Positions 13,107-59,280 of a DNA stretch of 64,000 nt are shown piece by piece. The DNA comes from a bacterium (GTDB lineage: Bacteria > CAIWAD01), in assembly GCA_030685015.1 (NCBI GenBank), contig JAUXWS010000059.1:87052-151051 (forward strand), read 5' to 3'. The position numbers and the translations under genes were made by a program. The notes beneath the pieces were generated by a model that had not been told where the DNA came from, ran no database searches, and saw only the letters and a list, made by a program, of their open reading frames with translations. Each line of letters begins with the position of its first letter. Position 1 is the stretch's first letter.

Positions 13107-13202
13107 GGCGGCGGCTCATGGCGAGGCGGCGGGCGCGGAGGAACCGGCCTCGCCGGGTTGATCGGGGAAGGGCTGGGCTGGCGTTCGCCGCATGGTCGGG
13201 GC

Positions 13203-27869: not shown

Positions 27870-29204
27870 CTACTCCTTCGGCTCGGGCAGCGCACAGACC
27901 AGGTCCCGGAAGCGCCGCCCCCGCTCCTCGAAGTTGACGAACTGGTCGAAGGAGGCGCACATGGGGCTTAGCAGGACGACGTCGCCCGGGCGGGACAAGG
28001 CCGCGGCCCGGGCCACGGCGCCGGCCAGGTTGTCCTCACGGTGCACGGCCAGCTTGTCCGCGAACCAGTCTCCGATGATGCCGCCGTCGCGGCCGAAGAC
28101 GACCAGCTCGCGCACCCGCTCCCTCACCAGCCCCTCCACCGTGCTGTAGTCGTCCGTTTTGGCCTCGCCGCCCGCCAGCAGGATGACGGAGCCGGGCGCG
28201 AAACCGACCAGGGCCTTGGCCGTGCTGTCCACGTTGGTGGCCTTGCTGTCGTTGATCCAGCGGACGCCCCGGCGCGTCCGCACGATCTCGATGCGGTGCT
28301 CGACGGGCGAGAAGTCCAGCATCGCCTGCCGCACAGTGGCCAGGTCGAGGCCGAGGTCGCGGGCGGCCAGCAGCACGGCGGCCATGTTCTCCAGGTTGTG
28401 GGCGCCGATGAGGCGCGGCGCGCCCGCCTCGATGAAGAGGCCGCCCGGCCACTCCTCCAGCCAGAGGCCGCGCTCGTCCACGCGCGCGGCGGCGGTCCGG
28501 CCGCCGGCGGAGAAGCGGTGGACGCGGCAGGAGAGGGAGTCGGCCCGAGGGGCCAGCAGCGGATCGTCGGCGTTGACCACCACGCAGCCGTCCTCCGCCA
28601 CCTGCTCGGCCAAGCGCCACTTGGCCGCCAGGTAGCCTTCCATGCTGCCGTGGCGGGCAAGGTGGTCCTCGCTCAGGTTGAGCAGCAGGGCGGCGCGCAC
28701 CCGCAGGTCGCGGCTCAACTCAAGCTGGTAGCTGCTCGCCTCCAGCACGGCCCAGTCCGGCGGCGGCTCCTCCAGCGCGACCAGGCTGAGCGGGTGGCCC
28801 ACGTTGCCGCAGGCCTCGGCCCGGCAGCCGCAGGCCTGGAGCACGGCCGCCGCCAGCAGAGTCGTCGTCGTCTTGCCGTTGGATCCGGTGACGGCCAGCA
28901 CCTCGCCGGCGAACCAGGTCCGTGCGAAATCCGGCTCGCTCTGCACGGGCAGGCCGCGCCGCAGAGCCTCCGCCACCAACGGATGGGACGGGGGGATCAC
29001 CGGGCTGGGCACAACCAGCGTCAGGTCGGAGGGCAGATCATTCCCCAGATGGACGGCCACCGGCAGGCCGGCCAGCTTCCCGCCCATCTGCTCCAGACTC
29101 AGCAGGTCGTCGTGGAGCAGGACCTCATGGCCGCGGGCCAGACCCAGCCGGGCCGCCGCCAGACCGCTGCGCGCCACGCCGATGATCAGCAGGCGGCCTG
29201 TCAT
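27870..29204 (-). CDS. murD: UDP-N-acetylmuramoyl-L-alanine--D-glutamate ligase
   Basis: Lies within ORF 27870..29792. Start at the ATG for MTGRLLIIGVARSGLAAARL, the MurD Rossmann N-terminus. Contains GSNGKTTTT. Its start overlaps the murE stop (ATGA). Confidence 0.9.
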   Translation of the reverse strand: MTGRLLIIGVARSGLAAARLGLARGHEVLLHDDLLSLEQMGGKLAGLPVAVHLGNDLPSDLTLVVPSPVIPPSHPLVAEALRRGLPVQSEPDFARTWFAGEVLAVTGSNGKTTTTLLAAAVLQACGCRAEACGNVGHPLSLVALEEPPPDWAVLEASSYQLELSRDLRVRAALLLNLSEDHLARHGSMEGYLAAKWRLAEQVAEDGCVVVNADDPLLAPRADSLSCRVHRFSAGGRTAAARVDERGLWLEEWPGGLFIEAGAPRLIGAHNLENMAAVLLAARDLGLDLATVRQAMLDFSPVEHRIEIVRTRRGVRWINDSKATNVDSTAKALVGFAPGSVILLAGGEAKTDDYSTVEGLVRERVRELVVFGRDGGIIGDWFADKLAVHREDNLAGAVARAAALSRPGDVVLLSPMCASFDQFVNFEERGRRFRDLVCALPEPKE

Positions 29205-30715
29205 GCCGGGCGCTCCCAGCATTGCCGCAGCACCTCGCGCTCGTCGAAGGGCCGCTTCTCGGTCCCGATCAGTTGATAGCGCTCGTGCCCCTTGCCCAGC
29301 AGCAGAAGCAGATCCTCCGGCCCCGCCTCCGCCAGCATGGCGGCGATGGCGGCGGCGCGATCGTCCAGGCGCGTGATGCGGGCGTCCCCGCCCTGCTCCG
29401 CCAGGATGTCGCCGAAGATCTGCGCCGGATCCTCGCCCCGGGGATTGTCCAGGGTCAGCCAGACACGGTCCGCGTGGACCAGCGCGATCCGCAGCATGAC
29501 CGGGCGCTTGCCACGGTCCCGCTCGCCGCCGCATCCGAAAAGCACGTGCAGGCGACGCCGGGGCAGGGCGGCCACTGCGGCGAAGGCCTTCTCGTAGCCG
29601 TCCGGGGAGTGGGCGTAGTCGATGAGGACGCGCGGGCCGCCCGCCAGGCGGAGGGGCTCCATGCGGCCGGGCACCGGATCCAGGTCGGCCATCAGCTCTC
29701 GCAGGCGGGGGCGGGGAATGCCCAGGGAGTCGGCCACGATCCAGGCCGCCGCGGCGTTGGAGGCGTTGTGGGAGCCGGGCAGGGGAATCCACAACTCTTC
29801 ATCGGCGCCGGGTCCCAGCAGGCGAAAGGCCTGTCCCTCGCCCTCGCCGCGTTCATCGGCGAGGCGCCAGTCGACCCCCGCCTCTCGGCCGAAGGTGACG
29901 ACGGGGAGGGGGTCCAGCTCCTGTGCCAGCCGCCGGCCCCAGGTACAGTCCGTGTTCACCAGGCGCAGTTCCGCCTCGGGGCGGCGCAGGAAGGATGCCT
30001 TCACCCGGAAGTAGTCCTCCATGCCCTGATGATAGTCGAGATGCTCCGGGCTGAGGTTGAGGAAGACGGCGCTGCGGAAGCCGAAGACCGCTTCCCGGCG
30101 CTGATGGATGGCGTGGCTGGAGACCTCCATCACCAGATGCCGTCCGCCCGCCTCCAGCAGCCTGCTGGCGAAGGCGGCCAGCCAGGGGGAGTCCGGCGTG
30201 GTGAGCGTGGCGGGGGCGGCTTCGCCGCCGCCCAGGCGGCTGCAGATGGTGCCCACGAGGCCGGCCCGGGGATCCAGCGGTCGCAGGAGCTGCTGCAGGA
30301 TCCAGGTGGTGCTGGTCTTCCCGTTGGTCCCGGTGACGCCATGCACGACGAGGTCCGCTTGTTCCAGGCCGGCGATGCGGGCCACGGCGCGGGGCAGCCA
30401 ATCCTGCGTGTCCTCGACCACCAGTTGGCCCGGCGTCCGGCGCAGGGGTTCCTCCTGGGCGAGGTGCCAGCCGGCCTCCACCACGCAGGGGAAGCCGTTG
30501 GCCAGCAGGGCGGGCGCATGGCCGTGTCCGTCGTGGGAGTATCCGCGCAGCGCCACGAAGAGGTCCCCCGGGCGGCAGCGGCGCGAGTCCGTGCGCAGGA
30601 GGGGACCGTCGCCACCCAGCTCCTCAAGGCCCCAGGGTCCCCCCGCCTCCAGTTGGAGGCGCCGGACACCCGGGAGGGCGCAGAGCCATCCCAGCGATGC
30701 TTCGCGTCGTGTCAT
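29201..30715 (-). CDS. murE: UDP-N-acetylmuramoyl-L-alanyl-D-glutamate--2,6-diaminopimelate ligase
   Basis: Lies within ORF 29201..31240. Start at the ATG for MTRREASLGW. Contains GTNGKTST and the DNPRGEDP (DNPR) meso-DAP specificity motif. ATGA overlap with the upstream sugar transferase. Confidence 0.9.
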   Translation of the reverse strand: MTRREASLGWLCALPGVRRLQLEAGGPWGLEELGGDGPLLRTDSRRCRPGDLFVALRGYSHDGHGHAPALLANGFPCVVEAGWHLAQEEPLRRTPGQLVVEDTQDWLPRAVARIAGLEQADLVVHGVTGTNGKTSTTWILQQLLRPLDPRAGLVGTICSRLGGGEAAPATLTTPDSPWLAAFASRLLEAGGRHLVMEVSSHAIHQRREAVFGFRSAVFLNLSPEHLDYHQGMEDYFRVKASFLRRPEAELRLVNTDCTWGRRLAQELDPLPVVTFGREAGVDWRLADERGEGEGQAFRLLGPGADEELWIPLPGSHNASNAAAAWIVADSLGIPRPRLRELMADLDPVPGRMEPLRLAGGPRVLIDYAHSPDGYEKAFAAVAALPRRRLHVLFGCGGERDRGKRPVMLRIALVHADRVWLTLDNPRGEDPAQIFGDILAEQGGDARITRLDDRAAAIAAMLAEAGPEDLLLLLGKGHERYQLIGTEKRPFDEREVLRQCWERPA

Positions 30716-32040
30716 GTGCGCAGCTTTCCCACCCGGGGCTGTCGCAGACTGCGCAGACCCTTGAGCACGGACTCCAGCATGATGCGCAGATCCATTTGCG
30801 GCGACCAGTTCATGGCGTAATACATGTCCATGGCCAGGCGTTGGCCCGGCTCGAAGTAGCCATAGTCGCTCACTTGCCAGAGGCCGGTGAGGCCGGGGCG
30901 GATGCGGGCGAAGGCCGCCAGATCCCCGGGATAGGTCTCGAACTCGCGCTCGATGAGCGGCGCGGGACCCACCAGGCTTTGCGATCCGACCAGCACGCCC
31001 AGCAGCTCCGGCACTTTGTAGAGTCCGGACTGGAAGAGCCAGCCGCCCCGCTCGTAGTCCACACGCAGCTGGAGCAGGGTGAGAGGGCGCCGCGTGAGGT
31101 CGTAGCGACGGATGCGCATGAGGGGTCGGCCCCGCAGGAAGGGCGTGGCCGCCACCACGGTCAACAGCACGAGCGGCAATCCGAGGAGGCCGGCTGTCAG
31201 GTCGACCAGGCGCTTGAGCAAGCGCTTGGCGGGTCGCCACAGGCTTTGCTCCAGGGACAACAGCGGCTGGTCGTCGAGGCGCACGATGCGGGCCCCCATC
31301 AGGGCCATGGTGGCGGCGTCGGGCACCAGCTCGATCGTGCGCACCCGGATCTCGAACTTGCGCAGCACGGTGGTAAGGCGGCGTCGCGGCATGCCCTCCA
31401 TGAAGACGACCACCTTCTGCAGGCCCTTGTCCGACACCAGGTGGTCGACCTGCTCATTGCATTCCGGCCGGAAGTCCTCGCCCTGCTCATCAAACAGCTC
31501 ACCCGGCGCCAGGCGGGCCAGTTCATCGTTGCCGCGACGGAAGCGGTCGCGGCCCACGGCGTCCAGAAAGGCCTCCACGCGGGTCGGGCTGCCGATGAAA
31601 AGCATGGGCGCCCGCAGCAGTCCGCCGCGCTGGATGAGCTGCCAGGCCGCCACACGAGCCACAGGCAGAAGGAGGAGGAGCCAGCCCATGGCGAATAGGG
31701 TTCCCAGGCGACTGAACTCGAAATCCAGGCGGAAGATGACGAGATAGGCGAGGACGACGGGGAAAAGCCAGGCCACGACCTGCAGGGAGCCGTAGACCTG
31801 GCGGCGCAACCCCAGGTCGCCGAAGCGGTAGAGGCGGGCCCGGGCGGCGAAGATCACCAGCAGGATGGAGGCCGGCGCCAGCACGTCCAAGTAGAGGCTC
31901 CAGGGCTGCTGGACGCTGACCAGCCCGGGCAGCAGCGGCGGCAGCAGCATGAAGCGGGTCCACCAGCCCAGCCAGAAGGCCAGCAGCAGGCAGGCAAGGT
32001 CCACCAGGACAAGCCCGGCGCGCAGCAGGTAGCGGGTCAT
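30712..32040 (-). CDS. bacterial sugar transferase family (polyprenyl-phosphate glycosyl-1-phosphate transferase, WbaP/EpsL-like)
   Basis: Lies within ORF 30712..32754. Start at the ATG for MTRYLLRAGLVLVDLACLLL. N-terminal TM helices. C-terminal catalytic blocks SLVGPAPL and RPGLTGLWQV. Confidence 0.8.
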   Translation of the reverse strand: MTRYLLRAGLVLVDLACLLLAFWLGWWTRFMLLPPLLPGLVSVQQPWSLYLDVLAPASILLVIFAARARLYRFGDLGLRRQVYGSLQVVAWLFPVVLAYLVIFRLDFEFSRLGTLFAMGWLLLLLPVARVAAWQLIQRGGLLRAPMLFIGSPTRVEAFLDAVGRDRFRRGNDELARLAPGELFDEQGEDFRPECNEQVDHLVSDKGLQKVVVFMEGMPRRRLTTVLRKFEIRVRTIELVPDAATMALMGARIVRLDDQPLLSLEQSLWRPAKRLLKRLVDLTAGLLGLPLVLLTVVAATPFLRGRPLMRIRRYDLTRRPLTLLQLRVDYERGGWLFQSGLYKVPELLGVLVGSQSLVGPAPLIEREFETYPGDLAAFARIRPGLTGLWQVSDYGYFEPGQRLAMDMYYAMNWSPQMDLRIMLESVLKGLRSLRQPRVGKLRT

Positions 32041-39223: not shown

Positions 39224-40537
39224 TCAGGCGCACTCCTGGCCTGGCAACAGGCCGCGGCGGACGTAGACGGCGTGGGCCATCTGCCGCAGTCGCGGCATGC
39301 GCGGCAGCGCCAACGCGGCACAGGCGGCGTAGACCAGGGCGCCGCAGGCCAGGGCCCAGGGGGCGCTCCAGACATCCGCCAGCCAGCCCAACAACAAGGC
39401 CCCCACGGGGAAGCTGCCCATGAAGGACATGGTGTAGAAGCTCATCACGCGGCCGCGCTGCTCGTCCTCCACCAGGGTCTGCAACAGTGTGTTGCTGCCG
39501 GCCATCTGGATCATCTGCCCGAATCCGATGGGCAGCATGAGCAGCAGGGAGAGCCAGACCGAGGTGGAGAGGGCGAAGGCGACCAGGGCCAGGCAGAAGA
39601 TGCCCGCCGAGATGACGATGAGTCGGCCGAGACCCAGGACGCTGCGGCGCGAGGCCAGATGAAAAGCTCCGCCGAGGGCGCCCACGCCCACGCCGCCCAT
39701 GAGGAAGCCCAGCGTGTCCGGGCCGCCGCCCAGGATGTCGCGGGCGAAGACGGGGAGCAGCACGGTGTAGGTCATGCCGACGAAGTTGAAGACCATCAGC
39801 AGGAGCAGGATGGCCCAGAGCGGGGGATTACCCATGACATAGCGCCAGCTCTCGCCCAGGCCCTCCCGCAAGCCGCGCCGCCGCTCCCGGGCACGGGCCT
39901 CGTCCCGGGCGGGGAGTCGCATCATCAGCAGGCAGGCCAGCACGGCCACATAGCTCAGGCCGTTGGCCAGGAAACAGACCCCCTCACCGGCCAGCGCGAT
40001 GAGCAGGCCGGCCAGGGAGGGTCCCAGCAGGCGGGCGCCGTTGAACATGGAGGAGTTGAGGGCGATGGCATTTCCCAGATCCCGGCGGTCGTCCACCAGC
40101 TCCACCAGGAGGGCATGGCGCACGGGCATGTCGAATCCGTTGATGGCGGCCATCAGCACGCTCAAGGCGACGACGTGCCAGAGCTGGATCCAGCCGCCCA
40201 GCACCAGCGCCGCCAGCAGCAGGGCCTGCAGCATGGACATCACTTGGGTGGCGAAGAGCAGACGGTGCTTGTCCACCCGGTCGGCGATGGCGCCGGCCAG
40301 CGGCGCGATGAGGAAGGTGGGCAGGTTGCCGGCGAAACTCAGCAGGCCCAGCAGGAAGGCCGAGTCGGTCAGGCGGTAGACCAGCCAGGCCAGCGCCACC
40401 CGCTGCATCCAGGTCCCCACCAGCGACACGCCTTGTCCCAGGAAGAAGAGCCGGTAGTTGCGGTGACGCAGGGCGCGCCCCACGATGGCCAGACGGGGGA
40501 TGGGCGCGAAATCGCGCCAGGCGGAGAGGCGGAGCAT
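39224..40537 (-). CDS. MFS transporter (EntS/YbdA-like)
   Basis: 437 aa with about 12 predicted TM helices. MFS block GAIADRVDKHRLL. Confidence 0.8.
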   Translation of the reverse strand: MLRLSAWRDFAPIPRLAIVGRALRHRNYRLFFLGQGVSLVGTWMQRVALAWLVYRLTDSAFLLGLLSFAGNLPTFLIAPLAGAIADRVDKHRLLFATQVMSMLQALLLAALVLGGWIQLWHVVALSVLMAAINGFDMPVRHALLVELVDDRRDLGNAIALNSSMFNGARLLGPSLAGLLIALAGEGVCFLANGLSYVAVLACLLMMRLPARDEARARERRRGLREGLGESWRYVMGNPPLWAILLLLMVFNFVGMTYTVLLPVFARDILGGGPDTLGFLMGGVGVGALGGAFHLASRRSVLGLGRLIVISAGIFCLALVAFALSTSVWLSLLLMLPIGFGQMIQMAGSNTLLQTLVEDEQRGRVMSFYTMSFMGSFPVGALLLGWLADVWSAPWALACGALVYAACAALALPRMPRLRQMAHAVYVRRGLLPGQECA

Positions 40538-40625
40538 GCGGGCGCCTTCAGGTCGGGACGGGTCTGTGGTCCTCGCCGGTCGAATCCGATGGGCCGCAAG
40601 CTAAGGAACTGGCCGCAAGCAGGGC

Positions 40626-41120
40626 TCAGGCCGCATCCTTGTCGTCCGACTGCTTGCCGCTCAGGGACTCGATCTCGATGGCCCACACCCGCGTCCGCTC
40701 CAGGCTGGCCGGCTGGTAGTCCCAGGCGCCCTGGCCGCCATAGTGGCGCATGATTTCGTCCAGGGCGGCGCGCCGCTCGTCGTGGCTGCGCAACTCCCGC
40801 ACGAGGCCGGTGCCGATCACCGAGCGGTAGGCGAAGCTCCAGGAGCAGGCCCTGTCCGGATGCGTCAGCAGGCGCAGGTCGCAGTGGGCCGCGAAACAGA
40901 CGCGGGGGTTCCTGGCCAGCATCTCCAGTTTGCGGCCCTCCCGCGCCGTGTGGAAGAAGAGGCGGCGGCCGTCATAACCGAAGGAAAGCGGCACCAGGTA
41001 AGGCTCCTGATCCACCGCCATGGCCAGGTGCAGCAGCTCCGCGCCGTGGAGCACCTCATCCAGGCCGGCCCGCGAGTCCATGGCCTTGTCCCGCCGGCGC
41101 AGGGGCCGTTGCATGTCCAT
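40626..41120 (-). CDS. pyridoxamine 5-prime-phosphate oxidase-like FMN-binding split-barrel protein
   Basis: ORF 40626..41234, with start at the ATG for MDMQRPLRRRDKAMDSRAGLDEVL. Contains LSFGYDGRRLFFHTAREGRKL. Confidence 0.6.
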   Translation of the reverse strand: MDMQRPLRRRDKAMDSRAGLDEVLHGAELLHLAMAVDQEPYLVPLSFGYDGRRLFFHTAREGRKLEMLARNPRVCFAAHCDLRLLTHPDRACSWSFAYRSVIGTGLVRELRSHDERRAALDEIMRHYGGQGAWDYQPASLERTRVWAIEIESLSGKQSDDKDAA

Positions 41121-41193
41121 GGCTCCCCCAAAAAGACCAGCCCCCGATCCGGACGGGGGCTGGTGGATTGTCCACGTGGGCTGGTTCGAAGGG

Positions 41194-41577
41194 CTAGAAA
41201 CGACGGTTGCCGCCGCCTCCGTAGCCGCCACCACCGCCGCCGCTGCGATTGCCGCCGCCGCCGCCGAAGCCGCCGCGACCGCCCCCGCCCCCGCCGAAAC
41301 CGCCGCCGCCGCGGGGCCGGCTGCCCTCCTCGCGCGGACGGGCCTCGTTGACGGTGAGGGCGCGACCGTTGATCTCCTTGCCGTTCAATTCGGCGATGGC
41401 CGTGGCCGCCTCGCCGTCATTGGCCATCTCCACGAAGCCGAAGCCTTTGGAGCGATTCGTGTCGCGATCCATGATGACCGTGGCCGACGTGACCTGGCCG
41501 TAGGCTCCGAACAGCTCCTCGAGGTCCTGGCTGCCCATGGTGAAGTTCAAGTTGCCGACGTACAACTTCTTGCTCAT
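41194..41577 (-). CDS. RNA-binding protein, RRM domain with Gly-rich C-terminal tail
   Basis: RNP2 block LYVGNL and RNP1 block KGFGFVEM, followed by a GGGFGGGGGGRGG tail. Confidence 0.85.
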   Translation of the reverse strand: MSKKLYVGNLNFTMGSQDLEELFGAYGQVTSATVIMDRDTNRSKGFGFVEMANDGEAATAIAELNGKEINGRALTVNEARPREEGSRPRGGGGFGGGGGGRGGFGGGGGNRSGGGGGGYGGGGNRRF

Positions 41578-41887
41578 CGAAAAGACTCCTGTTGGAAGAA
41601 CTGTGAGGATCCACGCCGTGCCTTGAACGTGTCAGCCCGGAGCTGCCTCGTTTCGAACCACGCCCCTGTCACGTCGCCCCGGCCGTCCGGCCCAGCGGAG
41701 CGGACCCGGATTCCCGCCCGAATGCTCCTTCCAGCAAGGACATACGCGACAAGCGGCGCGGGAATGTAGTGTTAGCGGGGGGGAAGTCCACTCACAATTT
41801 CGCATGGACAATCGCCGATCCAGGCCAGGCCGGGATCTCCCTTCACAGTCCGGAGCATGGCTGGTCGGCGCGATCGCGGTAAATGAA

Positions 41888-41911
41888 AGAGGGTGCCCGC
41901 GGGCACCCTCT
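41888..41911 (-). terminator. 24-nt perfect palindrome AGAGGGTGCCCGCGGGCACCCTCT followed by UUCAUUU on the minus-strand transcript: intrinsic terminator of selenoprotein candidate 1
   Basis: Seen directly, 23 nt downstream of the stop at 41935. Confidence 0.5.
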
Positions 41912-41934
41912 TCGGCGTCAGGATGTCGTCGGCC

Positions 41935-43722
41935 TCACTTGACCAGCATGACCTTCATCGCGTCGCGGGGCAGGCCGTCCACCACCAGCCGCACGAGGTA
42001 GAGGCCGCTGGCCAGCTCGGCGCCGTCCAGGGTGCGGGCGTGGGTGCCCGCCGCCTGGCGGCCCGCCTCAAGACGCCGCAGCTCCTGCCCCAGGGTGTTG
42101 AAGACGGCCAGCGCCACCGCGCCTTCCCGCTCCAGGCGATATTCCACCGTGGTGGTCGGATTGAAGGGGTTGGGCGTGGCCTGCACCAGGCGGAAGTCCT
42201 GCGGGCCGGCCGCCGGCGCCGGCGTCACGCCGGTCCCCATGAAGTAGTCCATGACGTGCTCGAGGAACATGGGCATGTTCATGGAACCGGTGACCGAGGA
42301 ATGGATGCGCGTGGCCTCAACGGGGAAACCGCAGAATATGGCGGCGTAGGGCGTGCCGGTGGTGTAAACCGCCGCCGGGGCGTTGGCCACCTGCCGCCAG
42401 GTGCCGAAGACCACGCCGGGTGCCGTCACGTCCAGCACGTCGGGATCCTGGCTGTTGTTGGCGCCCTGCACGCCGGTGATGACGAAGGCGGTGCCGTCGA
42501 ACCAGGTGTCGCCCGCCACGCCATCGATCACGAAGACGGAGCCGGCATCGGTGTCGGTCACGGTCACGCCGAAGTAGTCGGCCAGGAAGTCGGCCCGGGC
42601 GGGATTGGTGGACATGAACTGGCTCGACAAGAGCAGCCGTCCTCCGCCGTCCAGGAAGGTGCGCAGACCAGCCTCCTCGGCGTCGGTGACGTCGTTCTGC
42701 TTGATGCCGCCCAGCCACAGGATGCGCTCATAGCGGCCCATTTCGTCGGCGGCCAGGGGATTGTTCAAGCCGGACCAGACGTCGTGGCCGATCCCGGCCA
42801 GATCCAGGGCGGAGGTGACGAAGCTCTCGTTGTCGTCCATGCCGCCGTCGCTATCCACCAGCAAGGTGGCCGGGCGGCCAATGCGCTGGGTGTGGGTCAG
42901 CGTGCCCGTGGCCGTGCCGCCGTTGTAGGGGGCCGAGTACGCGAAGCTAAAGGTGGCCCAGTGCGGCTCGATGCCGGCGGCGACGGTGTAGACGAAGGGG
43001 CCGCTCCCTTCCACGGTCTCGCCCGGTTGGGCGGCTGGGAAGGTGACGGTGTTCTGGGTGATGGTCACGGCCGGGTCGCTGCAGGTCATGACCACCGTGC
43101 AGCCGTTGGCGGGGACGGCGATGGGGCTGTTGCGCAAGCTCAGGTCGTAGTGGATGGTCTCGCCGCCGTCGGGCCGGCCGTCCCCGTTGTCGTCGGAGAC
43201 GATGGCCAGCGATTGCACGGTGAACACAGGATAAGCAACCGACATGTACTGGTTGATGATGTTGTGCATCGCGCCTTCACTGAACCCGCTAGCCGTGTAG
43301 CGGACGATACCGTCTGTGTCCAGAATGACGTTGTATGGTATGTAGTTGTTGCCGTATTGGCTGTAGATGCTGGCGCAGCCCGTCAACACCAGGAAGGTGG
43401 GGTTGTACTGGTCCCAATGGGCATGCAGGGCGGCCGCTGAGGCGTTGTCCGTGTCGATGTGGACCAGTTCGAAGGCGGCGGGATCGTAGACTTGCTCAAA
43501 GTTGGTTTGAAGCACCGGAAACTCGGTGTTGCAGGAGGGTCACCACGTGGCACCGAAGTTTATCACCACCACCTTGCCCCGCTGGGCGTAGAGGTTCCAG
43601 CTGCCACCGTTCCAGTCGTTGCAGGTGAAGTCCGTCGGCGTTTGGCCCACCATCCAGGCGGCCTCAGCCGACAGGGCCATGCCCAGGGTGACCACGCCCA
43701 GCGCGATCGCGTTCTTCATCAT
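41935..43722 (-). CDS. candidate selenoprotein: secreted TlpA-like thioredoxin-fold oxidoreductase (UxxC active site) fused to a large C-terminal region with a FlgD-Ig/T9SS type-A-like sorting domain. In-frame UGA at 43540..43542 is read as Sec.
   Basis: ORFs 43540..43854 and 41935..43515 are in the same frame, separated only by TGA. Start at the ATG at 43722 with a GGGAGG RBS and signal peptide MMKNAIALGVVTLGMALSAEA. Read-through gives KVVVINFGATW-U-PSCNTEFPVLQ, which aligns with TlpA/ResA WCxPCRxExPxL. C-terminus TPNPFNPTTTVEYRLE...GLYLVRL. Confidence 0.65.
43511..43530 (-). promoter_or_regulatory. SECIS-like hairpin AA-CACCG-AGUUUC-CGGUG-CU; the core stem starts 11 nt 3-prime of the UGA at 43540..43542 (9 nt to the extended AA/UU stem)
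   Basis: Seen directly on the minus-strand mRNA. The core stem begins 11 nt after the UGA (9-nt spacer to the flanking AA/CU extension), and the loop contains GU. Position and shape fit the bacterial SECIS model. Confidence 0.5.
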
Positions 43723-43793
43723 TCCGCCTCCCTGATGGGTCCATGTATTGAACCATGGACCTGTGTTGTTCCGATTGAATGCTTTGTCAACCG

Positions 43794-43822
43794 CCGGGAG
43801 CATGATCGCACCATGCTCCCGG
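43794..43822. other. perfect 11-bp inverted repeat CCGGGAGCATG-N7-CATGCTCCCGG between the two paralogs
   Basis: Seen directly. It lies ~50 nt downstream of the copy-2 stop (43871) and ~70 nt upstream of the copy-1 start. No U-tract follows, so it may be a terminator-like or processing hairpin. Confidence 0.4.
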
Positions 43823-43870
43823 GAGATTTGGCAATTCCGAAGCAAATTCAGCAACTCCCGCGCCAGAAGA

Positions 43871-45595
43871 TCAGCGCACGGCCCGCACCTGGAAGTAGAG
43901 CTGTTCCACGCCGGGCAGGAACAGAACCGCGGGGGGCTGCTCCGTCTCCATCACCGGCTGTCCTGGAAAAGTCCAGGGCTGGGCCGATTGGTACACGCGA
44001 TATCCGGTGGCGCCGGGCACGGGCGTCCAATGCAGCGTGGCCGCGCCGGCGGTCATGCCCAGCGACAGGTCCGTCACCGGGTCCGGGGGCGTGGCGGGAT
44101 GGGCCGCGTGCCAGGCGAAGGCGCGCTGCAGGAAGCCGGCCATGGTCACGGAGGCCGGCAGCGGTCCATAGAGACGCAAGGCCTCGAGGGGGAATCCGCA
44201 GAAAATGCTGTTGAATCCGCCGCCCGCCAGGTAGGCCGCGGCGGGACCCAACGTCCCCTGGCGCCAAGCGGCCATCTGCACCGCCGGCGGCGTCACCGCG
44301 ATGACATCGGGATGCACGTTGTTGTTGGCCGCCGCCGCCCCCGACAGGATGAGGTCCATGCCGCCGAACCAGGGGTCGTCGGCCGTGGTGGTGGCCCAGA
44401 AGATGTTGCCGCCGGTGAGCGCCGTCGTTTGCACGCCGAAGCGCTGGGCGAGGAAGGGGGCGTTCTGCGCGTTGCTGGAGGCGTACTGGCTGGAAAGCAC
44501 CAGCAGGCCGCCACGGTCCAGGAAGGCCTCCAGCACGGCCCGCTCCGCCGCGGTGATGTCCGGGTTGCGGATGCCGCCCAGCCAGATGATGCGCTGGTAT
44601 CTCAGCGCCTCCACCTCGCTCAGGGCGCCCTGCTGGTCCAGGGCCCACAGGTCGGCGGCCACGCCCAGGGCCGAGAGCGCGTTCAGGGCGTAGCTCTCGT
44701 TGTCGTCCATCTCGCCGTCGGCATCCACCAGCAGCAGGTCGGGACGGGCGATGCGCTGCTGGACCAACAGGTTCTGCTCCCAGGTGCCGCCCTCGAAGTT
44801 GGCCGACACGTGGATCTGGAAATCCGCCCAGTGCGGCTCCGCTTCGGACGACACGATGAAACTGAAGGCCGGCGTCTGCACGACCTGGCCCGGTGCCATG
44901 GCCGCCACCGTGGCTTGCGCCACCTGCGGTGACAGGGCGCTGGAGGTGGTCGACCAACTGATGTTGATGGACTGGGCGGCCATGCCGTTGGGACTGTTGC
45001 GCAAGGTGAGGGCGAAGCTCACCTGCTCGCCGGGATCTGGCCGGCCGTCGCCGTTGTCGTCGGACAGGATGTCCACCGACAGCAGGTTGAAGAAGGGGTT
45101 GGGCAGGCTGAGATACTGCTGGATGACGGCGTGGATGGCCGACTCGTTGAAGCCCGAGGCGGTGTAGCGGACGATGCCCTCCGTGTCCAGCACCACGTTG
45201 TAGGGGATGTAGTTGTTGCCGTATTGATTGTAGATGCTGGCGCAGCCCACGAGGACGGGAAAGGTGGGGTTGTATTGGTTCCAGTGGGCGTGCAGGGCGG
45301 CGGCGCTGGCGTTGTCCGTGTCGATGTGGACGACTTCGAAGGCGGCGGGATCGTAGGAGGCCTCGAAGTTGGATTGCAACACCGGAAACTCGGTGTTACA
45401 AGACGGTCACCACGTGGCGCCGAAGTTGAGGAGGACCACCTTGCCGCGCTGGCTGTAGAGATTCCAGCTTTGGCCGTTCCAATCCGTGCAGGTGAAATCG
45501 GTGGGCGTGCTGCCGATGGTCCAGACGGCGGCCGCGGGCGCGCAAAGGACCATCGACAGAAACAGCCCGGTCAACAAACGGGCGCGGTGCTTCAT
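43871..45595 (-). CDS. candidate selenoprotein, paralog 2: secreted TlpA-like thioredoxin-fold (UxxC) protein with the same middle region and an FN3-like C-terminus. In-frame UGA at 45407..45409.
   Basis: ORFs 45407..45595 and 43871..45382 are in the same frame, separated only by TGA. Signal peptide MKHRARLLTGLFLSMVLCAPAAA. Read-through gives KVVLLNFGATW-U-PSCNTEFPVLQ, identical in the active-site block to copy 1. RBS AGGGGGGA. Confidence 0.65.
45378..45397 (-). promoter_or_regulatory. SECIS-like hairpin AACACCG-AGUUUC-CGGUGUU (7-bp stem) beginning 9 nt 3-prime of the UGA at 45407..45409
   Basis: Seen directly. The hairpin-forming nucleotides are identical to copy 1, while flanking synonymous positions differ. 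Confidence 0.5.
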
Positions 45596-49215: not shown

Positions 49216-50408
49216 TCAGGCCGTGCGCGTCACGGTCAGCCGCACCTGGCCGTGGTTGTTCTTGTAGAAGTTCCAGGCCTCGTTGGCGTGGCAGCAAAGG
49301 TAGCCGGCGCGGGACGGCGTGCGGCTGTGGGCCGTGCCGATGCGGAAGGTCTCCAGGGGAGCAGGCGTGCCGTCCGGCCCCGGATCGCCGCCGTTGGCGA
49401 TGGCGCCCATGAGGGCCATCCAGGGCTCCTGCTCGGCCCGCCGCGTGCCCCAGAAATCCGCCTCCTCGTTGCCGGTCACCTTCTTCACCAGTTGTTCGAA
49501 GCGACCCCAGACCCCCGCGGCGACGTGAATCAATTCACCCTTGTCGAAGCGGCCATCCTTGGTGCCCCCTGGGGCCGCAGACCAGGTCGCGGTCCATCCA
49601 CTGGCCCTCGGCACTGGACTCGCAAGTGGCGCCCGCCTACAGCCAGAGGCCAGTGATGTTCCAACGGTCGGCGGGCGTAAATGGCCAGCTGGCAGGATTC
49701 ACCCACGGCGAGCTGTTGCGTCCGCCGGCAGGGCGCTTGGAGGATGGGCGGATCCTCCAGGCGCTTGAGGGCGGTGGAATGGATGTGATCGTCGCCGCTC
49801 GTCAGTTTTGGCGTGTGGCGGGGCTGGGTGCGCAGCAGCTTGAAGACGCCGGAGCAAGAGTCGTGCAGGACGTCCTGGTGGTTGGGGCGGACCTGGCGCA
49901 GCATGCCCGGCTTGAAGGCCTAACCCTGGGCCTGGGCCTCCTCGATCATCCACTGCAGAGCGCCGTTGGAGAGGCCGGTCTCGGCGTAGCCGCCCCCCAC
50001 GTCGCAGTGCACGCCGCGCTTCCAGCGGTCGACGTCGGACAAGCCGGTCAGATCGGGCAGGCCGCAGGCCGACATCAGTCCGGCCAGACTGCGCACCGTG
50101 CAGGCGCCGCGGCTGAAGCCGATAAGGAAGAGGCGGCCGCCGTCCTGCACGTTGCGGCAGAGCCAGTGCCAGGCGCTGAGGATGTTCTTGCTCAGCCCTT
50201 CGCCCACGCTGCCGCCCTTGGCCTTCTCCCACCATCTGTCTTCGGTGCCCGCGCCGGGATGGTGTTAGGCCAACTGGTGCCTGCCCTGGGCGTCTGTCTC
50301 GGCCAGCGCGTTGTGGAGACGCACCACGTTGGCGGGGACAGGAGTGCCGCTCTCGTCCTGGTCGGGTGTGCTCCAGGTGCCGTCGCAGCAGATAACCAGC
50401 CGCCGCAT
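49216..50408 (-). pseudogene. disrupted DUF2235 (T6SS Tle1-lipase-like alpha/beta hydrolase) gene. In-frame TAA at 50265..50267 and TAG at 49920..49922, plus a frameshift in 49530..49614.
   Basis: N-terminal fragment MRRLVICCDGTWSTPD...NVVRL carries the DUF2235 CDGTW and NVxRL blocks. The next same-frame fragment has GFSRGA (GxSxG) and GVHCDVGGGY. Four consecutive ORF-track pieces lie on one strand. Confidence 0.5.
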
Positions 50409-50541: not shown

Positions 50542-52572
50542 TCATGGGCGCCGACGGTCCGGGTTGTGGAAGTAGTTGAAGCGCCAGAGCGCCTCGTCGC
50601 CATGGCAAGTGGCGCACAGGGTCTCGCTGCTCTCGGCCGTGAGGAATTGCACTCGTCCATGCTCACGACCTTCGCGCCAGGGCTGATGTGGATTGTGACA
50701 GGTGCGGCAATCCACATGCAGGTAGCGTCGCTCTTCCGGAACGATGGAGGGCAGCGGCCCCTTTTCCCAGGCGGGGTGGAACCAGGCCTTGGGCACGCGC
50801 TGTCCGACTCCGGAGTCGTGGTGGCAGGCCAAGCAGCCGATGGCGCCGGTTGTCCAATTGTCGGGCTGCCGTTCCCGGCTTCCTTCGGCCCAGTCCGATT
50901 CGGGCATGAGATGACCCAGGTTCGATCCGGCCACGGCGGAGCTGAGCAGGGCCGGCGTGGCCGCCTGGTGCGGACTGTGGCAGGCTGCGCAGGGATTGGG
51001 CGATTCGCCGGGCATTCCGCGCCGGTCGTGCATGCTGCCCAGGATGGAGCCCTGGTTGGTATGGCAGTCCATGCACAAGGCGCCGTCATGATTGCCCGCG
51101 CGAAGGAAACTGGAGGCATCGTCGCCGTTCATGCCCCGTGCCCATGCAGCCCCGACGGGACTCCACTGGTGTGGGTCGTGGCAGGTTTCGCAGCCGATGC
51201 GCTCATCCGCAAGGCGTGGCAGCCAGGAAGGCCGGAGGGCTCCGATTCCCCTTCCCACCGGATGGCTGAATTCACCCACGGAGCTGAGCCCCGGAGTGTT
51301 GGCTGCGGCATCCTCGTGACAGCGAAGGCACAGGCGCGTGGCCGGGCTTAGCAGGCCGGCCTCGGCGGGACCATCGGGACTGGTGGCCAGCACGTCGCGG
51401 CCGTGGGCATCGTGACAACTGCTGCAGCGCCACACCGACTGACCCGAGAGGGAGATGAAAAGCGGTTCGTCGGCGCCATGGTCGGAGGCCAGAATGGAAG
51501 CTTGGCCTGGGTGGCAACTCAGGCAAAGGCCATCTTCAGCCTGGTCCATGCGCCGCAGGAAACTGGTTCCCGGCGTGCCGGGCTGGCCTGCGTCGGTCTC
51601 GCCTCCGACGGACCACCGATGCGGATCGTGGCAGGTGATGCAAGCCACGTGGCCTTGTCGCAGGGGCAAGTCGCCACTTCCCTCCGGCACCGCGCCCAAG
51701 GGATGGCCCCAGGCATGCGCGGCGTCCTCGCTGTGGGATTGCGGCGCCGCGTGACAGCGTTGGCAAAGGGCGTTGCCGCGAGAGTCGGGCGAGGCGTTGG
51801 CGTGGGGCGCATGACAGGTCGAGCAGGCGTCGTGCTCCCCGGGCTTCCCACTGGACAGGCTGTGACGGGTGGACAGGACCTCCTGTTGCGGCTCATGGCA
51901 TGCGGCACACAGCCTGCCACGATCCTTGCCCTCCGTGTTCCGCGTGGGATGCGCGCTGTGCATCTTGTGGCAACTGAGGCATTCCACCCGGTCCCGCGGG
52001 GTGAAGGAATTGGTCAGCGAAGCGCCTCGACCATCCTTGAGCTGTGCGTGGATCGGGTGATTCCCGGCATTGCCCGCGTGGTCCGCATGACAGTTGAGGC
52101 AAAGCTCCGAGGCGAGAATGCCGTCTCGGATGAAGGGCGACAGCTCGTACTTGCGCCCCATTTTGTGCGTGTGCGGCGTGTGGCAGGTGCCGCAATAGAC
52201 GTCGCCATTCAGGTCGAGCGGAAGACTGCCCGTGGAAAAACCCTTGGGGAGTTTCCGCAAATGGATGTCGCCGGGGCGAAACGCAGTGCGGCTGTCCTTC
52301 ACGTAGCCATCGTGGCAGGACCAGCACATTTCTTCCGAGCTGTTGCGCGCCGGCTCGCCGTCCAGGATCACCGGGTTCTTCAGGGGAGGCAGGAAGGGCT
52401 CCAGGCGGTCAAAATCGTCGCCCCAGTTGATATGGCAGATGATGCACTGACGGAGGTGCTCGGCGCGCGATACCACGGCAAGGCTGTTGGATGAAGCACA
52501 CAGCAATGCCAGCAGGAGGACGCGAAAGGTCAGGTTCTGGCTTGGGATCACAAGGGGCCGGATCTTGGCCAT
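50542..52572 (-). CDS. multiheme c-type cytochrome with 18 CxxCH motifs, secreted
   Basis: Signal peptide MAKIRPLVIPSQNLTFRVLLLALLCASS. I counted 18 CxxCH motifs in the translation. Confidence 0.85.
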   Translation of the reverse strand: MAKIRPLVIPSQNLTFRVLLLALLCASSNSLAVVSRAEHLRQCIICHINWGDDFDRLEPFLPPLKNPVILDGEPARNSSEEMCWSCHDGYVKDSRTAFRPGDIHLRKLPKGFSTGSLPLDLNGDVYCGTCHTPHTHKMGRKYELSPFIRDGILASELCLNCHADHAGNAGNHPIHAQLKDGRGASLTNSFTPRDRVECLSCHKMHSAHPTRNTEGKDRGRLCAACHEPQQEVLSTRHSLSSGKPGEHDACSTCHAPHANASPDSRGNALCQRCHAAPQSHSEDAAHAWGHPLGAVPEGSGDLPLRQGHVACITCHDPHRWSVGGETDAGQPGTPGTSFLRRMDQAEDGLCLSCHPGQASILASDHGADEPLFISLSGQSVWRCSSCHDAHGRDVLATSPDGPAEAGLLSPATRLCLRCHEDAAANTPGLSSVGEFSHPVGRGIGALRPSWLPRLADERIGCETCHDPHQWSPVGAAWARGMNGDDASSFLRAGNHDGALCMDCHTNQGSILGSMHDRRGMPGESPNPCAACHSPHQAATPALLSSAVAGSNLGHLMPESDWAEGSRERQPDNWTTGAIGCLACHHDSGVGQRVPKAWFHPAWEKGPLPSIVPEERRYLHVDCRTCHNPHQPWREGREHGRVQFLTAESSETLCATCHGDEALWRFNYFHNPDRRRP

Positions 52573-52798
52573 GGAGGCCTCCGCGGGGATGAAGAGAATG
52601 TGCTTCCGTCAGAACAGGAGTCGGTGGCCAACGGCCGCAGGGGGCGATAGCCTCAATTGTGAAACTGTTGCCAAGTTAATCCCCGTCGTGGGCAATTCAA
52701 GTGCAAGCCAGCGGGTTTCCAACTTGACATGGCAGCTTTCGTCACAGACCTTGAATCGACGAAAGCCGTTGGCAAGTTGAGTTCATGCTGGCCTTGGG

Positions 52799-53542: not shown

Positions 53543-53605
53543 CCGCTGTGCTTCCGCACGTCCAGTTAGAGTGCCTCAGCCCATTCCAGTAGTCTCGGAG
53601 CCGAC

Positions 53606-55204
53606 ATGAACCTGGCGTACTTCAGAAACATCTGGCTGGCGGTGTTGCGCAGTCTGGCCATCAACAACATCAGTCGCGCCGGCGTGGCCATCACGACCTC
53701 GGCATTCGTCTCCTTCTTCTTCTTTGAGATCAGCATGCTGACCGGGGTCCTTCACAACCCCTACGTGGGCATGATCACCTACCTGGGCATTCCCATGCTG
53801 TTCATCCTGGGCCTGATGTTGATCCCGATCAGCTGGGTGTGGGAGGCACGACGCCGGAAATGCAGCATCAAGGCCCTGTTGTGGGAGAGGTTCGATCGAC
53901 GCATGCTGGAGCGTCGTGCGCGCGGCGCATTGGCCTTGCGTGTGCTGGTCATCATGAGCTTCGTCAATGTGGGCTTCATCAGCGTGGTGGGATTCCAGGC
54001 GGCCAAGCACATGGACGAATCTGAATTCTGCGGCACCACGTGCCACACGGTGATGGGTCCGGAATGGGCCGTGTATCAGGGGTCTCCGCACGCCCGTGTG
54101 CAATGCGTGCATTGTCACATCGGCGAAGGCGTGGGTGCCCTGGTGGACGCCAAGCTCAACGGCGCGTGGCAGATGATCGCCCTGTCCCTGGGCATCTATG
54201 AACGGCCGATTCCCACTCCGGTCCACAACTTGCGCCCGGCCCGCTTCACCTGCGAGAAGTGTCATTGGCCCGCGCTTTTCCACGGCAACCAATTCAAGAA
54301 CATCGTTCACTACGAAGAGGACGAAAGCTCCACGCCGCGCCACACGACCCTGATGATGAAGACCGGGTCGGGCGAGCCGGGGCATGAGCACGGCAGTCAT
54401 TGGCACGTGTCCCCCAGCAATCAAGTGCATTACGCGTCCCTGGATGACAAGGGCGAAACCATGGTCTGGGTTGACATGCGGTTGCCCGACGGAGGGGTGC
54501 GTCGCTACCACAACAAGTCCTTGTCGAAGGCGGACGCCGAGCGTGCTGGACTAACACACACGATGGACTGCGTGGATTGCCACAACCGGGCCACGCATGT
54601 CTTCGAGCTGCCTGCGGTTGCCGTGGATCAGCGGATTCGCCTGGGACTCATCAGCCGGGATCTGCCCTACATCAAGCGTCAGGCGCTGGCCGCTCTTGTG
54701 CAGGCGTACCCTGATCGCGACGCCGCGATGACGGGGATTGACGCAAGCATTCGCGGATTCTATCATCAGGAATACCCCGAACTTGCCATGGCCCGCGCCA
54801 CCGCCCTGGACTCCGCGGTCACGACGGTGCAGGCCATCCACCGGCGCAACATTCATCCGGACATGAAGGTGGTCTGGGGGAGCTACCCCAACCACCTGGG
54901 TCACGGCAGCACCTCAGGGGGCTGTTTTCGGTGTCACAATCAAGACATGGTGGATGATTCGGGAGCCGGCATCCCGGACGACTGCGTGCTCTGTCATTCG
55001 ATCCTCTCCAACGACGAGCCGGAGCCTTATCTCTATCTGTTCCGGCCGGACGAGTACGCGCCGCGGGAAACACAGGAGATGCAGCGATTCCTGCGGACGG
55101 AATTCTGGGAATACACACGGGATGCAGTGGAAAAGGGCGCCCGCCCGAATCAGTCACCACCGGACTGGTTCAACAAGGCGGCGGGCCGCGAATCCGGGGA
55201 TTGA
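53606..55204 (+). CDS. membrane-anchored multiheme cytochrome c with two N-terminal TM helices, 5 CxxCH and 1 CxxxCH; NapC/NirT or ImcH-like architecture
   Basis: TM helices VAITTSAFVSFFFF and ITYLGIPMLFILGLMLIPI. Heme motifs CGTTCH (CX3CH), CVHCH, CEKCH, CVDCH, CFRCH and CVLCH. Confidence 0.8.
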   Translation: MNLAYFRNIWLAVLRSLAINNISRAGVAITTSAFVSFFFFEISMLTGVLHNPYVGMITYLGIPMLFILGLMLIPISWVWEARRRKCSIKALLWERFDRRMLERRARGALALRVLVIMSFVNVGFISVVGFQAAKHMDESEFCGTTCHTVMGPEWAVYQGSPHARVQCVHCHIGEGVGALVDAKLNGAWQMIALSLGIYERPIPTPVHNLRPARFTCEKCHWPALFHGNQFKNIVHYEEDESSTPRHTTLMMKTGSGEPGHEHGSHWHVSPSNQVHYASLDDKGETMVWVDMRLPDGGVRRYHNKSLSKADAERAGLTHTMDCVDCHNRATHVFELPAVAVDQRIRLGLISRDLPYIKRQALAALVQAYPDRDAAMTGIDASIRGFYHQEYPELAMARATALDSAVTTVQAIHRRNIHPDMKVVWGSYPNHLGHGSTSGGCFRCHNQDMVDDSGAGIPDDCVLCHSILSNDEPEPYLYLFRPDEYAPRETQEMQRFLRTEFWEYTRDAVEKGARPNQSPPDWFNKAAGRESGD

Positions 55205-57404: not shown

Positions 57405-57501
57405 GGGAAGTGCCCATGGTTGAAACATCCTCCAAGGGTGCGCCACAAGGGCGGTGGCCGGCCTTCCGTTCGCGCTGCAATCATGGCCTGAATCGGGCGC
57501 G

Positions 57502-58335
57502 GATATGATCCGGATTTCATTGCTGGTCATGTTGGCGGCCTGTCTGCATGGCAGGGTCGGACATGGTGTCGAGACTCCCGCCCACAATGACAGGGTCAAG
57601 TTGCTCTGGGAGTTCCATGGCTACTATCCCTGCATGGACTGCCATTTCAACCAGGAGACCAACCGGAGGCCCCGGGTGCTTGAAATGGAGCACGAGAAGC
57701 CTCTGGATTGGATGGACGACGACGGCGTGATTCACCGCGTGGAATTCGGCGAGCGCCTGCCTTTGGCGGAACTTCTTGGGAAGGGGCAGGCTCGTGGCCT
57801 GCGCCGGGAGACACTGGAGCGCATCGGACGGCGCATGAATCTGCGCGACCACATGTCCGCCCAAGGCCTTGGCGTAACGGACTCGATCTGGGTGCTGACG
57901 CATGGTGGTGGCAATGTGTGGTGCCTGGATTGCCACTCAGCCAGCGAACGGGACATGCTGGTGCTGCATGATGGCAGCCTGTTGAGTTTCAATGAAAGCC
58001 AGAGGCTGTGCGGGCAATGTCACGGGCCCACACTGATTGACTGGGATGCGGGAGCCCACGGCCGCACCAATGGCTACTGGAATCTGGAGTTGGACTCCAC
58101 GGGCATCAGCAGGCGCTTGTTGTGCGTGGAGTGCCACAACCCTCACGCGCCAGCCTTCCGCGGCATGATGCCTCTTGCCGGACCCGTCAACCGACTTGAC
58201 AACATTTCTCAACCCGCCCCTGGCACGCACAGAAAAGAAACCATCAAAGGGACGCGGGATGATATGGGGCCGCAGCCATGGCAGACTTCGCCGCGAAACG
58301 GGACGAGCGATCGCTCCAGGGAGGGCAACCCGTGA
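57502..58335 (+). CDS. tetraheme c-type cytochrome (4 CxxCH), periplasmic partner of the downstream NrfC/NrfD-like module
   Basis: ORF 57454..58335, with start at the ATG for MIRISLLVMLAACLHG. Motifs CMDCH, CLDCH, CGQCH and CVECH. Confidence 0.7.
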   Translation, partial: DMIRISLLVMLAACLHGRVGHGVETPAHNDRVKLLWEFHGYYPCMDCHFNQETNRRPRVLEMEHEKPLDWMDDDGVIHRVEFGERLPLAELLGKGQARGLRRETLERIGRRMNLRDHMSAQGLGVTDSIWVLTHGGGNVWCLDCHSASERDMLVLHDGSLLSFNESQRLCGQCHGPTLIDWDAGAHGRTNGYWNLELDSTGISRRLLCVECHNPHAPAFRGMMPLAGPVNRLDNISQPAPGTHRKETIKGTRDDMGPQPWQTSPRNGTSDRSREGNP

Positions 58336-59273: not shown

Positions 59274-59280
59274 AGAGGGC

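Follow-up and report, generated by a model that had tools for sequence, protein, structure and literature searches.

A candidate UxxC selenoprotein family with a TlpA/ResA-like domain and a predicted type IX sorting tail, encoded by tandem genes with an in-frame UGA

Selenoproteins with a thioredoxin fold and a UxxC motif, in which U is selenocysteine (Sec), are long established and have been described under names such as 'Prx-like thiol:disulfide oxidoreductase' and 'thiol:disulfide interchange protein' (PMC1794560, PMC2398784, PMC13188914). The described Prx-like members are mostly single-domain proteins from Deltaproteobacteria, Clostridia and ocean reads. Here we describe two tandem genes, copy 1 and copy 2, on a stretch of 64,000 nucleotides (nt) of bacterial DNA (GTDB lineage CAIWAD01; assembly [GenBank:GCA_030685015.1], contig JAUXWS010000059.1, positions 87,052 to 151,051), the whole of which is called the window below. 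Each gene carries an in-frame TGA at the codon for the N-terminal active-site Cys of a TlpA/ResA-like domain. We put the probability that the TGA of copy 1 encodes Sec at the active site, by genuine Sec insertion, at roughly 0.88, and two tandem selenoprotein genes appear to be the best explanation of the locus. This reading is based on the placement of the TGA at the catalytic Cys, the Sec/Cys pairing among relatives, the conservation of the TGA, a covarying hairpin downstream of it and the standard genetic code of the organism.

The in-frame TGA and its conservation

An earlier note, made from the letters of the window alone, had joined two open reading frame (ORF) pieces across a single TGA into one gene with a product of about 595 amino acids (aa). 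Both points hold. The pieces 43540..43854 and 41935..43515 lie in one frame of the minus strand, with a lone TGA at 43542..43540 between them; the upstream piece holds the signal peptide and the first strand of the domain. The peptide around it is ...GKVVVINFGATW-TGA-PSCNTEFPVLQ, and read-through gives 595 aa with U at residue 61. Homologues of 591-604 aa match copy 1 from end to end. The start listed in the ORF track, TTG 43854, is not the real one and has to be replaced by ATG 43722, which is preceded by a GGAGG ribosome-binding site (Table 1). In phmmer searches, copy 1 matches ResA and 3kcm at ~1e-11. The alignment pairs INFGATW[U]PSCNTEFP with LNFWGTWCEPCKKEFP of Bacillus subtilis ResA and places the TGA on the N-terminal active-site Cys. 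The active-site block W-U-P-S-C-N-T-E-F-P thus pairs with W-C-E-P-C-K-K-E-F-P, including the E-x-P of the ResA type.

About 48 close relatives came out of a protein search. Seven of them (P0003, P0004, P0009, P0012, P0025, P0026 and P0043) are full-length proteins of 568-604 aa with W-C-G-P-C. The remaining close relatives, 446-529 aa long, start just past the position that corresponds to the TGA, as expected if a gene caller stops at a Sec codon. Scanning one genome per species yielded 75 loci, which were translated to look for TGA genes. In these loci, 24 more genes proved to have TGA at the same W-x-x-x-C position. In a complete Delongbacteria chromosome (L007, [GenBank:OY760505.1], 9974), the in-frame TGA stands in a variant motif, SFGYPT-U-PGC, not NFGATW-U-PSC. 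Altogether, 27 genes have TGA at this codon, namely the two window copies and 25 genes from independent assemblies. The metagenome-assembled genomes (MAGs) that carry TGA genes are labelled Delongbacteria, KSB1, Calditrichota/Calditrichaceae, 'Deferribacteres JdFR-76', Marinimicrobia/Neomarinimicrobiota and Fidelibacterota. Both flanks of the TGA are conserved at the protein level, with synonymous variation. Retention of one catalytic stop codon across such a range cannot be explained by assembly error, by a pseudogene or by a two-gene arrangement.

One Delongbacteria contig (L001, ENA ERZ27247358 k141_1513971) is syntenic with positions 39224..45595 of the window, sharing the two paralogues followed by genes for an RRM protein, a PNPOx-like protein and an MFS transporter. 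At the codon in question, L001 has three tandem paralogues with TGA, TGA and TGC; the third (11774..13549), a Cys form with WCGPC, comes after both Sec genes. The window lacks this third paralogue, and the RRM-protein gene directly follows copy 1. Two expectations that follow from the earlier note are therefore borne out. Cys homologues with TGC at this codon exist, represented by WCGPC in the seven relatives and by the TGC paralogue in L001. Moreover, the orthologues are not consistently split into two genes, as the TGA is kept at the exact codon, with both sides conserved, in all 27 genes.

Copy 2 lies directly upstream of copy 1, is 53% identical to it over ~500 residues and has its TGA in the same motif, 1.9 kb away. 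The codons that follow the two TGAs differ only synonymously (CCC/CCG, TCC/TCT, TGC/TGT and CTT/TTG), so that selection at the protein level acts on the downstream frame of both copies. We scanned the whole window for TGA triplets with coding-like GC content at third codon positions on both flanks; this returned the two predicted Sec sites and two others, at 27003 and 3744. We read the former as an ordinary gene junction and the latter as a likely non-coding antisense frame. The stops of the 36 called window genes are TGA in 28, TAG in 7 and TAA in 1. Since 28 of the 36 genes stop at TGA, the genetic code is standard and a reassigned code, already considered unlikely in the earlier note, is excluded.

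The hairpin downstream of the UGA

The bacterial selenocysteine insertion sequence (bSECIS) model (PMC13188914) describes a hairpin with a loop of 3-9 nt, an upper stem of 4-16 base pairs (bp), G at loop position 1-2, a distance of 16-37 nt from the UGA and a minimum free energy (MFE) of -7.5 kcal/mol or lower. A hairpin directly follows the TGA in each of the 27 genes and agrees with the model in loop, upper stem, G and spacing, the last being 16-17 nt in 26 of the 27. In the Delongbacteria type the loop reads AGUUUC (or GUU); most others have GGC, and two have AGUUG and AGGCA. Two stem registers occur in the family, one with the loop AGUUUC in Delongbacteria and the other with GGC or GUU elsewhere. 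Fourteen TlpA-type genes with a Cys codon in the same loci served for comparison: 7 of these 14 have no qualifying hairpin, and none has one stronger than -2 kcal/mol.

The stem covaries. Among the 15 non-Delongbacteria genes, both partners change in 4 pairs, in 15 cells (one pair, for example, occurs as U-A, G-C and C-G). The covariation score is 0.287 versus 0.075 in shuffles; none of 500 shuffles reaches 0.287, and the score is above that of every slid register. The compensating changes span different amino acids (T/A/S at +5 and V/H/N/D/R at +9). In the 13 Delongbacteria-type genes, the codons of the loop and the 3' arm, GAG-TTT-CCG-GTG, are invariant in 13 of 13, while only 10.5% of comparably conserved degenerate columns are invariant in this set. 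The frozen Phe codon, TTT, is the rare one here (68 TTT versus 560 TTC). Covariation and frozen synonymous sites are two independent lines of comparative evidence, and they show the predicted hairpin to be under selection at the RNA level.

The hairpin of copy 2 agrees with the bSECIS model in every respect, at -15.2 kcal/mol and with a constrained MFE of -16.0 kcal/mol. It was also scored at -19.7 kcal/mol (z -2.6), and only 0.8% of the TGA triplets in the window have a hairpin as good. Compared with synonymous recodings it is in the top 9% in stability, which is weak support. The hairpin of copy 1 has a spacing of 16 nt, a loop of 6 nt with G at position 2 and a stem of 5 bp (CACCG/CGGUG), beneath which there are two more pairings interrupted by mismatches. 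Orthologues in L001, L003 and L004 have the same minimal core.

Alternative readings of the UGA

Several observations weigh against Sec insertion in copy 1. No tRNA-Sec, selA, selB or selD was found in the 64-kb window (ARAGORN; Pfam on 37 window ORFs), and no tRNA-Sec, SelA, SelB or SelD in the loci with TGA members (ARAGORN; tblastn). The ARAGORN search covered the window and loci L001-L076, and tblastn with E. coli SelA, SelB and SelD covered all loci. The copy 1 hairpin, at -6.1 kcal/mol, is the weakest in the family of TGA genes, and its constrained MFE of -7.2 kcal/mol is 0.3 short of the model cut-off of -7.5 kcal/mol. Synonymous recodings reach a mean of -9.8 kcal/mol versus -7.2 for the native sequence, and 71% of them fold at least as well. 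In this window of 67% GC, 17.6% of TGA triplets have a qualifying hairpin as good as that of copy 1 (2.7% at a spacing of 16-17 nt). Finally, Rfam searches around both TGAs, at the gathering threshold and at E <= 10, returned nothing relevant. Because the stability test fails for copy 1, thermodynamic stability is not counted as evidence for it, and the support for a putative SECIS there is comparative, not intrinsic. The check for a SECIS element suggested in the earlier note comes out in favour of Sec, within limits: there is a hairpin at the canonical distance, conserved and covarying, but that of copy 1 is weak when taken alone. A functional-looking SECIS may thus be too small for single-sequence thresholds and be recognisable by cross-gene comparison only.

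The sole tRNA-Sec seen lies in L016 (16163..16256; [GenBank:NJBN01000009.1], candidate division LCP-89 B3_LCP), a locus without a TGA member. A gene distantly homologous to the C-terminal module described below lies ~5 kb from this tRNA-Sec gene, which has no adjacent sel genes. LCP-89 bacterium B3_LCP is one of the Sec-utilizing test genomes in the deep-Sep study (PMC12013277).

Three rival explanations were considered. In the first, the UGA would be passed without selenium, either through a near-cognate or suppressor tRNA (for Trp, Cys or Arg) or through context-dependent leaky termination, the hairpin serving only to slow the ribosome. The Sec machinery not seen in the window or in the loci with TGA members, as well as the weak hairpin of copy 1, would fit such a process. 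However, the TGA replaces exactly the catalytic Cys, as in the classic Sec/Cys pair, and a CxxC enzyme with Trp or Arg there would be inactive. The hairpin is of the SelB type, with G-U or G-G from loop position 1 or 2 and a spacing of 16-17 nt, and its loop nucleotides are frozen against codon bias. In addition, SelD has been reported in single-cell genomes of SAR406 and KSB1 (PMC5029168). We consider selenium-free readthrough very improbable.

The second is that the TGA is a true stop, so that copy 1 would be either a pseudogene or a 60-aa secreted peptide followed by a 526-aa protein starting from GTG 43515. All gene callers and databases do split the gene in this way (P0001, P0015 and others are 522-529-aa entries), NCBI names one entry 'T9SS type A sorting domain-containing protein', and the hairpin of copy 1 alone is not above chance. 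Nevertheless, a true stop is very improbable in view of the TGA at the same codon in 27 genes from several phyla, flanked on either side by conserved amino acids and synonymous changes, and of Cys homologues that are single proteins of 568-604 aa. The upstream piece would stop one residue short of the redox motif. The downstream piece has no signal peptide and, by inspection of the sequence, no ribosome-binding site at GTG 43515 comparable to that of ATG 43722, yet the tail for the type IX secretion system (T9SS) at its end needs prior export through the Sec translocon. With the sole signal peptide and ribosome-binding site upstream of the TGA and the T9SS tail downstream, the pieces make sense only as one protein. 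Still less credible, and indeed extremely improbable, is that the TGA is a sequencing or assembly error or a sense codon in a variant code. The bare presence of an in-frame TGA is all that speaks for this, while the same TGA is found in two window paralogues and in 25 genes of independent assemblies, 28 of the 36 window genes end at TGA, and the scan showed only two other TGAs with coding-like flanks.

Architecture, possible function and described relatives

The features of the two genes are collected in Table 1. The earlier note had described a secreted TlpA-like domain combined with a C-terminal T9SS tail, and this architecture is confirmed by Pfam and NCBIfam matches, by TIGR04183 and by the model of a Cys homologue. 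With U written as C, residues 25-150 of copy 1 match AhpC-TSA (9.8e-13), Redoxin (3e-12) and also Thioredoxin_8 in Pfam, and, in NCBIfam, the models for ResA (6.9e-17), TlpA, DsbE and StoA. All scores against the latter models lie far under the equivalog cut-offs (ResA 62 versus 170, TlpA 35 versus 230), so copy 1 is not assigned to these equivalogs, and no NCBIfam model matches the window proteins at the family level. A peroxiredoxin (AhpC/TSA) proper was considered because of the PF00578 match and rejected: the site is W-U-x-x-C, of the TlpA/ResA type, and not the PxxxTxxC of a peroxidatic Cys. The label 'Prx-like' applies solely in the naming scheme of PMC1794560.

Fold evidence for this domain comes from the AlphaFold model of the Cys homologue P0003, 61% identical to copy 1, with a mean predicted local distance difference test (pLDDT) score of 86.7. 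In the model, the signal peptide is followed by a thioredoxin-fold domain, then by a beta-sandwich, an alpha/beta domain and, at the C-terminus, a second beta-sandwich; residues 1-17, equivalent to the signal peptide, form an N-terminal helix at low confidence. The first domain superposes on ResA, Etrx2 and DsbE-like chains (E ~1e-10), with a TM-score, normalised to the ResA (target) chain, of up to 0.87. The first domain of copy 1 is thus predicted to have a thioredoxin fold of the TlpA/ResA subclass. Two further Cys residues, C34 and C116 (C36 and C118 in copy 2), located in DFTC and xGC, recur in those Delongbacteria-type sequences that were viewed. In addition to the U-x-x-C centre, the two may be joined in a structural disulfide.

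The Ig-like domain that follows carries an invariant DGRPDxGE motif and has no Pfam match. Together with the next domain, which resembles class-I glutamine amidotransferases (GATase1) and ThuA, it forms a module (42235..43230, minus strand) with no Pfam family. Matches to the module only were found by tblastn in MAGs of Gemmatimonadota, Eisenbacteria, Zixibacteria, WOR-3, TA06 and KSB1 (loci L009-L036), and it also matches an M6-peptidase-like protein, P0049. The region of the T9SS tail is modelled as a beta-sandwich in P0003. In Pfam, the tail of copy 1 scores 21.3 against a cut-off of 27 for Por_Secre_tail (PF18962), and FlgD_ig is also below its cut-off. The TIGR04183 tail and the signal peptide, the latter judged by inspection, are those of a T9SS cargo protein. 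The C-terminus of copy 2 is unlike that of copy 1: it has no T9SS-tail match in Pfam or NCBIfam, and a segment containing ...GYRVY... looks fibronectin-III-like by eye.

Table 1. Predicted features of the tandem genes (window positions; aa, amino acids; nt, nucleotides; bp, base pairs)
Feature	Position	Strand	Remarks
Copy 1, read-through coding sequence	41935..43722	minus	595 aa, U61; ATG 43722 to stop TGA 41937..41935
Predicted Sec-UGA codon, copy 1	43542..43540	minus	at N-terminal active-site Cys position
Ribosome-binding site GGAGG	43731..43727	minus	4 nt 5' of copy 1 ATG; read from sequence
Signal peptide MMKNAIALGVVTLGMALSAEA	43660..43722	minus	sole export signal of copy 1; judged by inspection
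ResA/TlpA-like thioredoxin-fold domain	43243..43656	minus	~residues 23-160; active site W-U-P-S-C
Ig-like beta-sandwich domain	42877..43230	minus	~residues 165-282; AlphaFold2 model of window fragment, pLDDT 92
Class-I glutamine-amidotransferase-like (GATase1)/ThuA-like alpha/beta domain	42235..42867	minus	~residues 286-496; non-Pfam
T9SS type A C-terminal sorting domain	41938..42177	minus	~residues 516-595; TIGR04183 27 bits, cut-off 23
SECIS-like hairpin, copy 1	43508..43533	minus	core 43513..43528, CACCG-AGUUUC-CGGUG, 16 nt after UGA
Copy 2, paralogous read-through coding sequence	43871..45595	minus	574 aa, U63; directly upstream of copy 1
Predicted Sec-UGA codon, copy 2	45409..45407	minus	same motif as copy 1
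Putative SECIS hairpin, copy 2	45374..45401	minus	11-bp stem UUGUAACACCG/CGGUGUUGCAA, loop AGUUUC, 16 nt after UGA
Intrinsic-terminator-like GC-rich 12-bp hairpin, then UUUCAUUU	41887..41912	minus	after copy 1; -25.6 kcal/mol, z -4.1

If the TGAs encode Sec, the UGA codons at 43542..43540 and 45409..45407 would be recoded in translation by SelB with Sec-tRNA(Sec), recruited by the small hairpin that starts a few nt past the UGA and presents the loop A-G-U-U-U-C 16 nt downstream. Copy 1 would be exported by the Sec translocon via its N-terminal signal peptide, passed to the T9SS and probably displayed on or released from the cell surface. Its most likely role would be that of an extracytoplasmic selenol/thiol-disulfide oxidoreductase (reductase). 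In the motif W-U-P-S-C, Sec61 would be the attacking nucleophile and Cys64 the resolving residue. Sec61 would attack a substrate disulfide (or a peroxide or sulfenate), and Cys64 would then resolve the intermediate as a selenenylsulfide, in a chemistry like that of ResA/TlpA with a stronger nucleophile. The Ig-like and GATase1-like domains could bind the substrate, or act as scaffold or anchor. Like Sec insertion itself, the redox direction, the substrate, the electron donor and the final location are aspects that we infer.

No ccdA/dsbD or cytochrome-c-maturation genes were found beside the two genes. Elsewhere in the window there is an extracytoplasmic electron-transfer cluster (50542..52608, minus strand; 53570..55204 and 57424..60513, plus strand). 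It encodes a multihaem cytochrome with an MtrC/MtrF-like domain, a NapC/NirT-like cytochrome, a CXXCH protein, a 4Fe-4S dicluster protein and an NrfD-like membrane subunit. This multihaem-cytochrome/NrfD cluster is 7-17 kb from the predicted Sec genes, a relation of proximity only. The window also encodes a 1267-aa Peptidase_C25 (gingipain-like) protein (18038..21841, plus strand). Proteins of the Peptidase_C25 family are typically T9SS cargo, and its presence is consistent with an active T9SS in this organism.

Our literature search found nothing relevant linking type IX secretion and selenoproteins, and no paper linking Delongbacteria and selenocysteine. As a tentative idea, which we regard as rather doubtful, the genes may represent the first selenoprotein family exported via the T9SS. 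In FCB-group candidate phyla it would serve as a selenoenzyme on the cell surface or released from it, with tandem Sec/Sec(/Cys) isoforms allowing extracellular redox activity with or without selenium, and would maybe be tied to the nearby multihaem-cytochrome genes for electron export.

Some further features of the window deserve mention. The hairpin that follows copy 1 (41887..41912) was detected by folding and not flagged by a consensus terminator scan, and the consensus promoter/terminator scan gave nothing useful. Between the copy 2 stop and the copy 1 start there is a strong 13-bp GC-rich hairpin without a U tract (43794..43822, minus strand), and the 86-nt intergenic segment folds at -35.2 kcal/mol. 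This hairpin may serve as a terminator, a processing site or an attenuator. Two adjacent ORFs that overlap as listed (27870..29792 and 29201..31240, minus strand) each have Mur-ligase middle and C-terminal domains. They are followed by glutamate-racemase-like and DSP-phosphatase-like genes. Finally, only a 114-aa fragment of the catalytic domain of a Tle1-like phospholipase of the type VI secretion system is present at 49923..50264 (minus strand); it may be a gene remnant.

In databases, no fewer than 27 genes from at least five candidate phyla are recorded only as 500-530-aa 'hypothetical' or 'T9SS sorting domain' proteins. Such NCBI and JGI entries, sometimes accompanied by a separate 60-aa ORF, are truncated and lack both catalytic domain and signal peptide. 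The annotation would be mended by a dedicated model, which would also mark these lineages as Sec users. If the genes encode selenoproteins, Sec use would be extended to large exported, probably surface-displayed, multi-domain proteins. Moreover, the Sec/Sec/Cys paralogues would form a natural set for comparing selenium-dependent and selenium-independent isoforms.

Among described systems, the Prx-like 1/3 selenoproteins (PF00578/PF08534; Zhang, Gladyshev and co-workers) share with the window family the thioredoxin fold, matches to both PF00578 and PF08534, and UxxC with Sec for the first Cys. Both groups also have many Cys homologues and a predicted SECIS hairpin right after the UGA, and both were predicted computationally by the same criteria. 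In contrast to the published descriptions, the proteins of the window family are 570-600 aa long, with an Ig-like, a GATase1/ThuA-like and a T9SS (or other) C-terminal domain, and occur as tandem paralogues in FCB-group candidate phyla. In the one published Prx-like 3 fusion 'Unknown_3', the fused domain has a conserved CxxC, whereas the window module has no Cys in its conserved columns. It is therefore unlikely that the module is 'Unknown_3'.

The ResA/TlpA/CcmG(DsbE) proteins (B. subtilis ResA, 1st9/1su9; B. japonicum TlpA, 1jfu) share the fold, the motif W-C-x-x-C-x-x-E-F-P and an extracytoplasmic location via an N-terminal signal. They have Cys, are ~140-220 aa long and are membrane-anchored or periplasmic, while copy 1 is predicted to have Sec, ~430 extra residues and T9SS sorting. 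Their substrates are apocytochrome c or copper-centre assembly factors, and CcdA/DsbD supplies the electrons. Sec in a TlpA/ResA-like domain is also a feature of the UGC-type TlpA family, 'ResA-like WAxxUGC motif-containing protein' (NF041054; PMC13188914). However, Sec is located elsewhere in that family, in the motif U-G-C and not W-U-x-x-C, and the window protein scores 29-40 bits versus a cut-off of 300, which rules out membership.

With the SECIS elements of E. coli fdhF and fdnG and with the bSECIS model, the hairpins of the family share their location within the coding sequence after the UGA, a small loop with G then U/G at positions 1-2, a distance of 16-17 nt between UGA and loop, and an upper stem of 4-11 bp. 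In sequence, they do not resemble the fdhF/fdnG elements, and relative to the model the copy 1 element has its spacing at the lower limit and its stem length near the lower limit. The mechanism is not new, as the genes agree with known UxxC selenoproteins by the same criteria. What appears to be undescribed in the material searched is the 570-600-aa architecture, the tandem Sec/Sec(/Cys) arrangement and the distribution among FCB-group candidate phyla.

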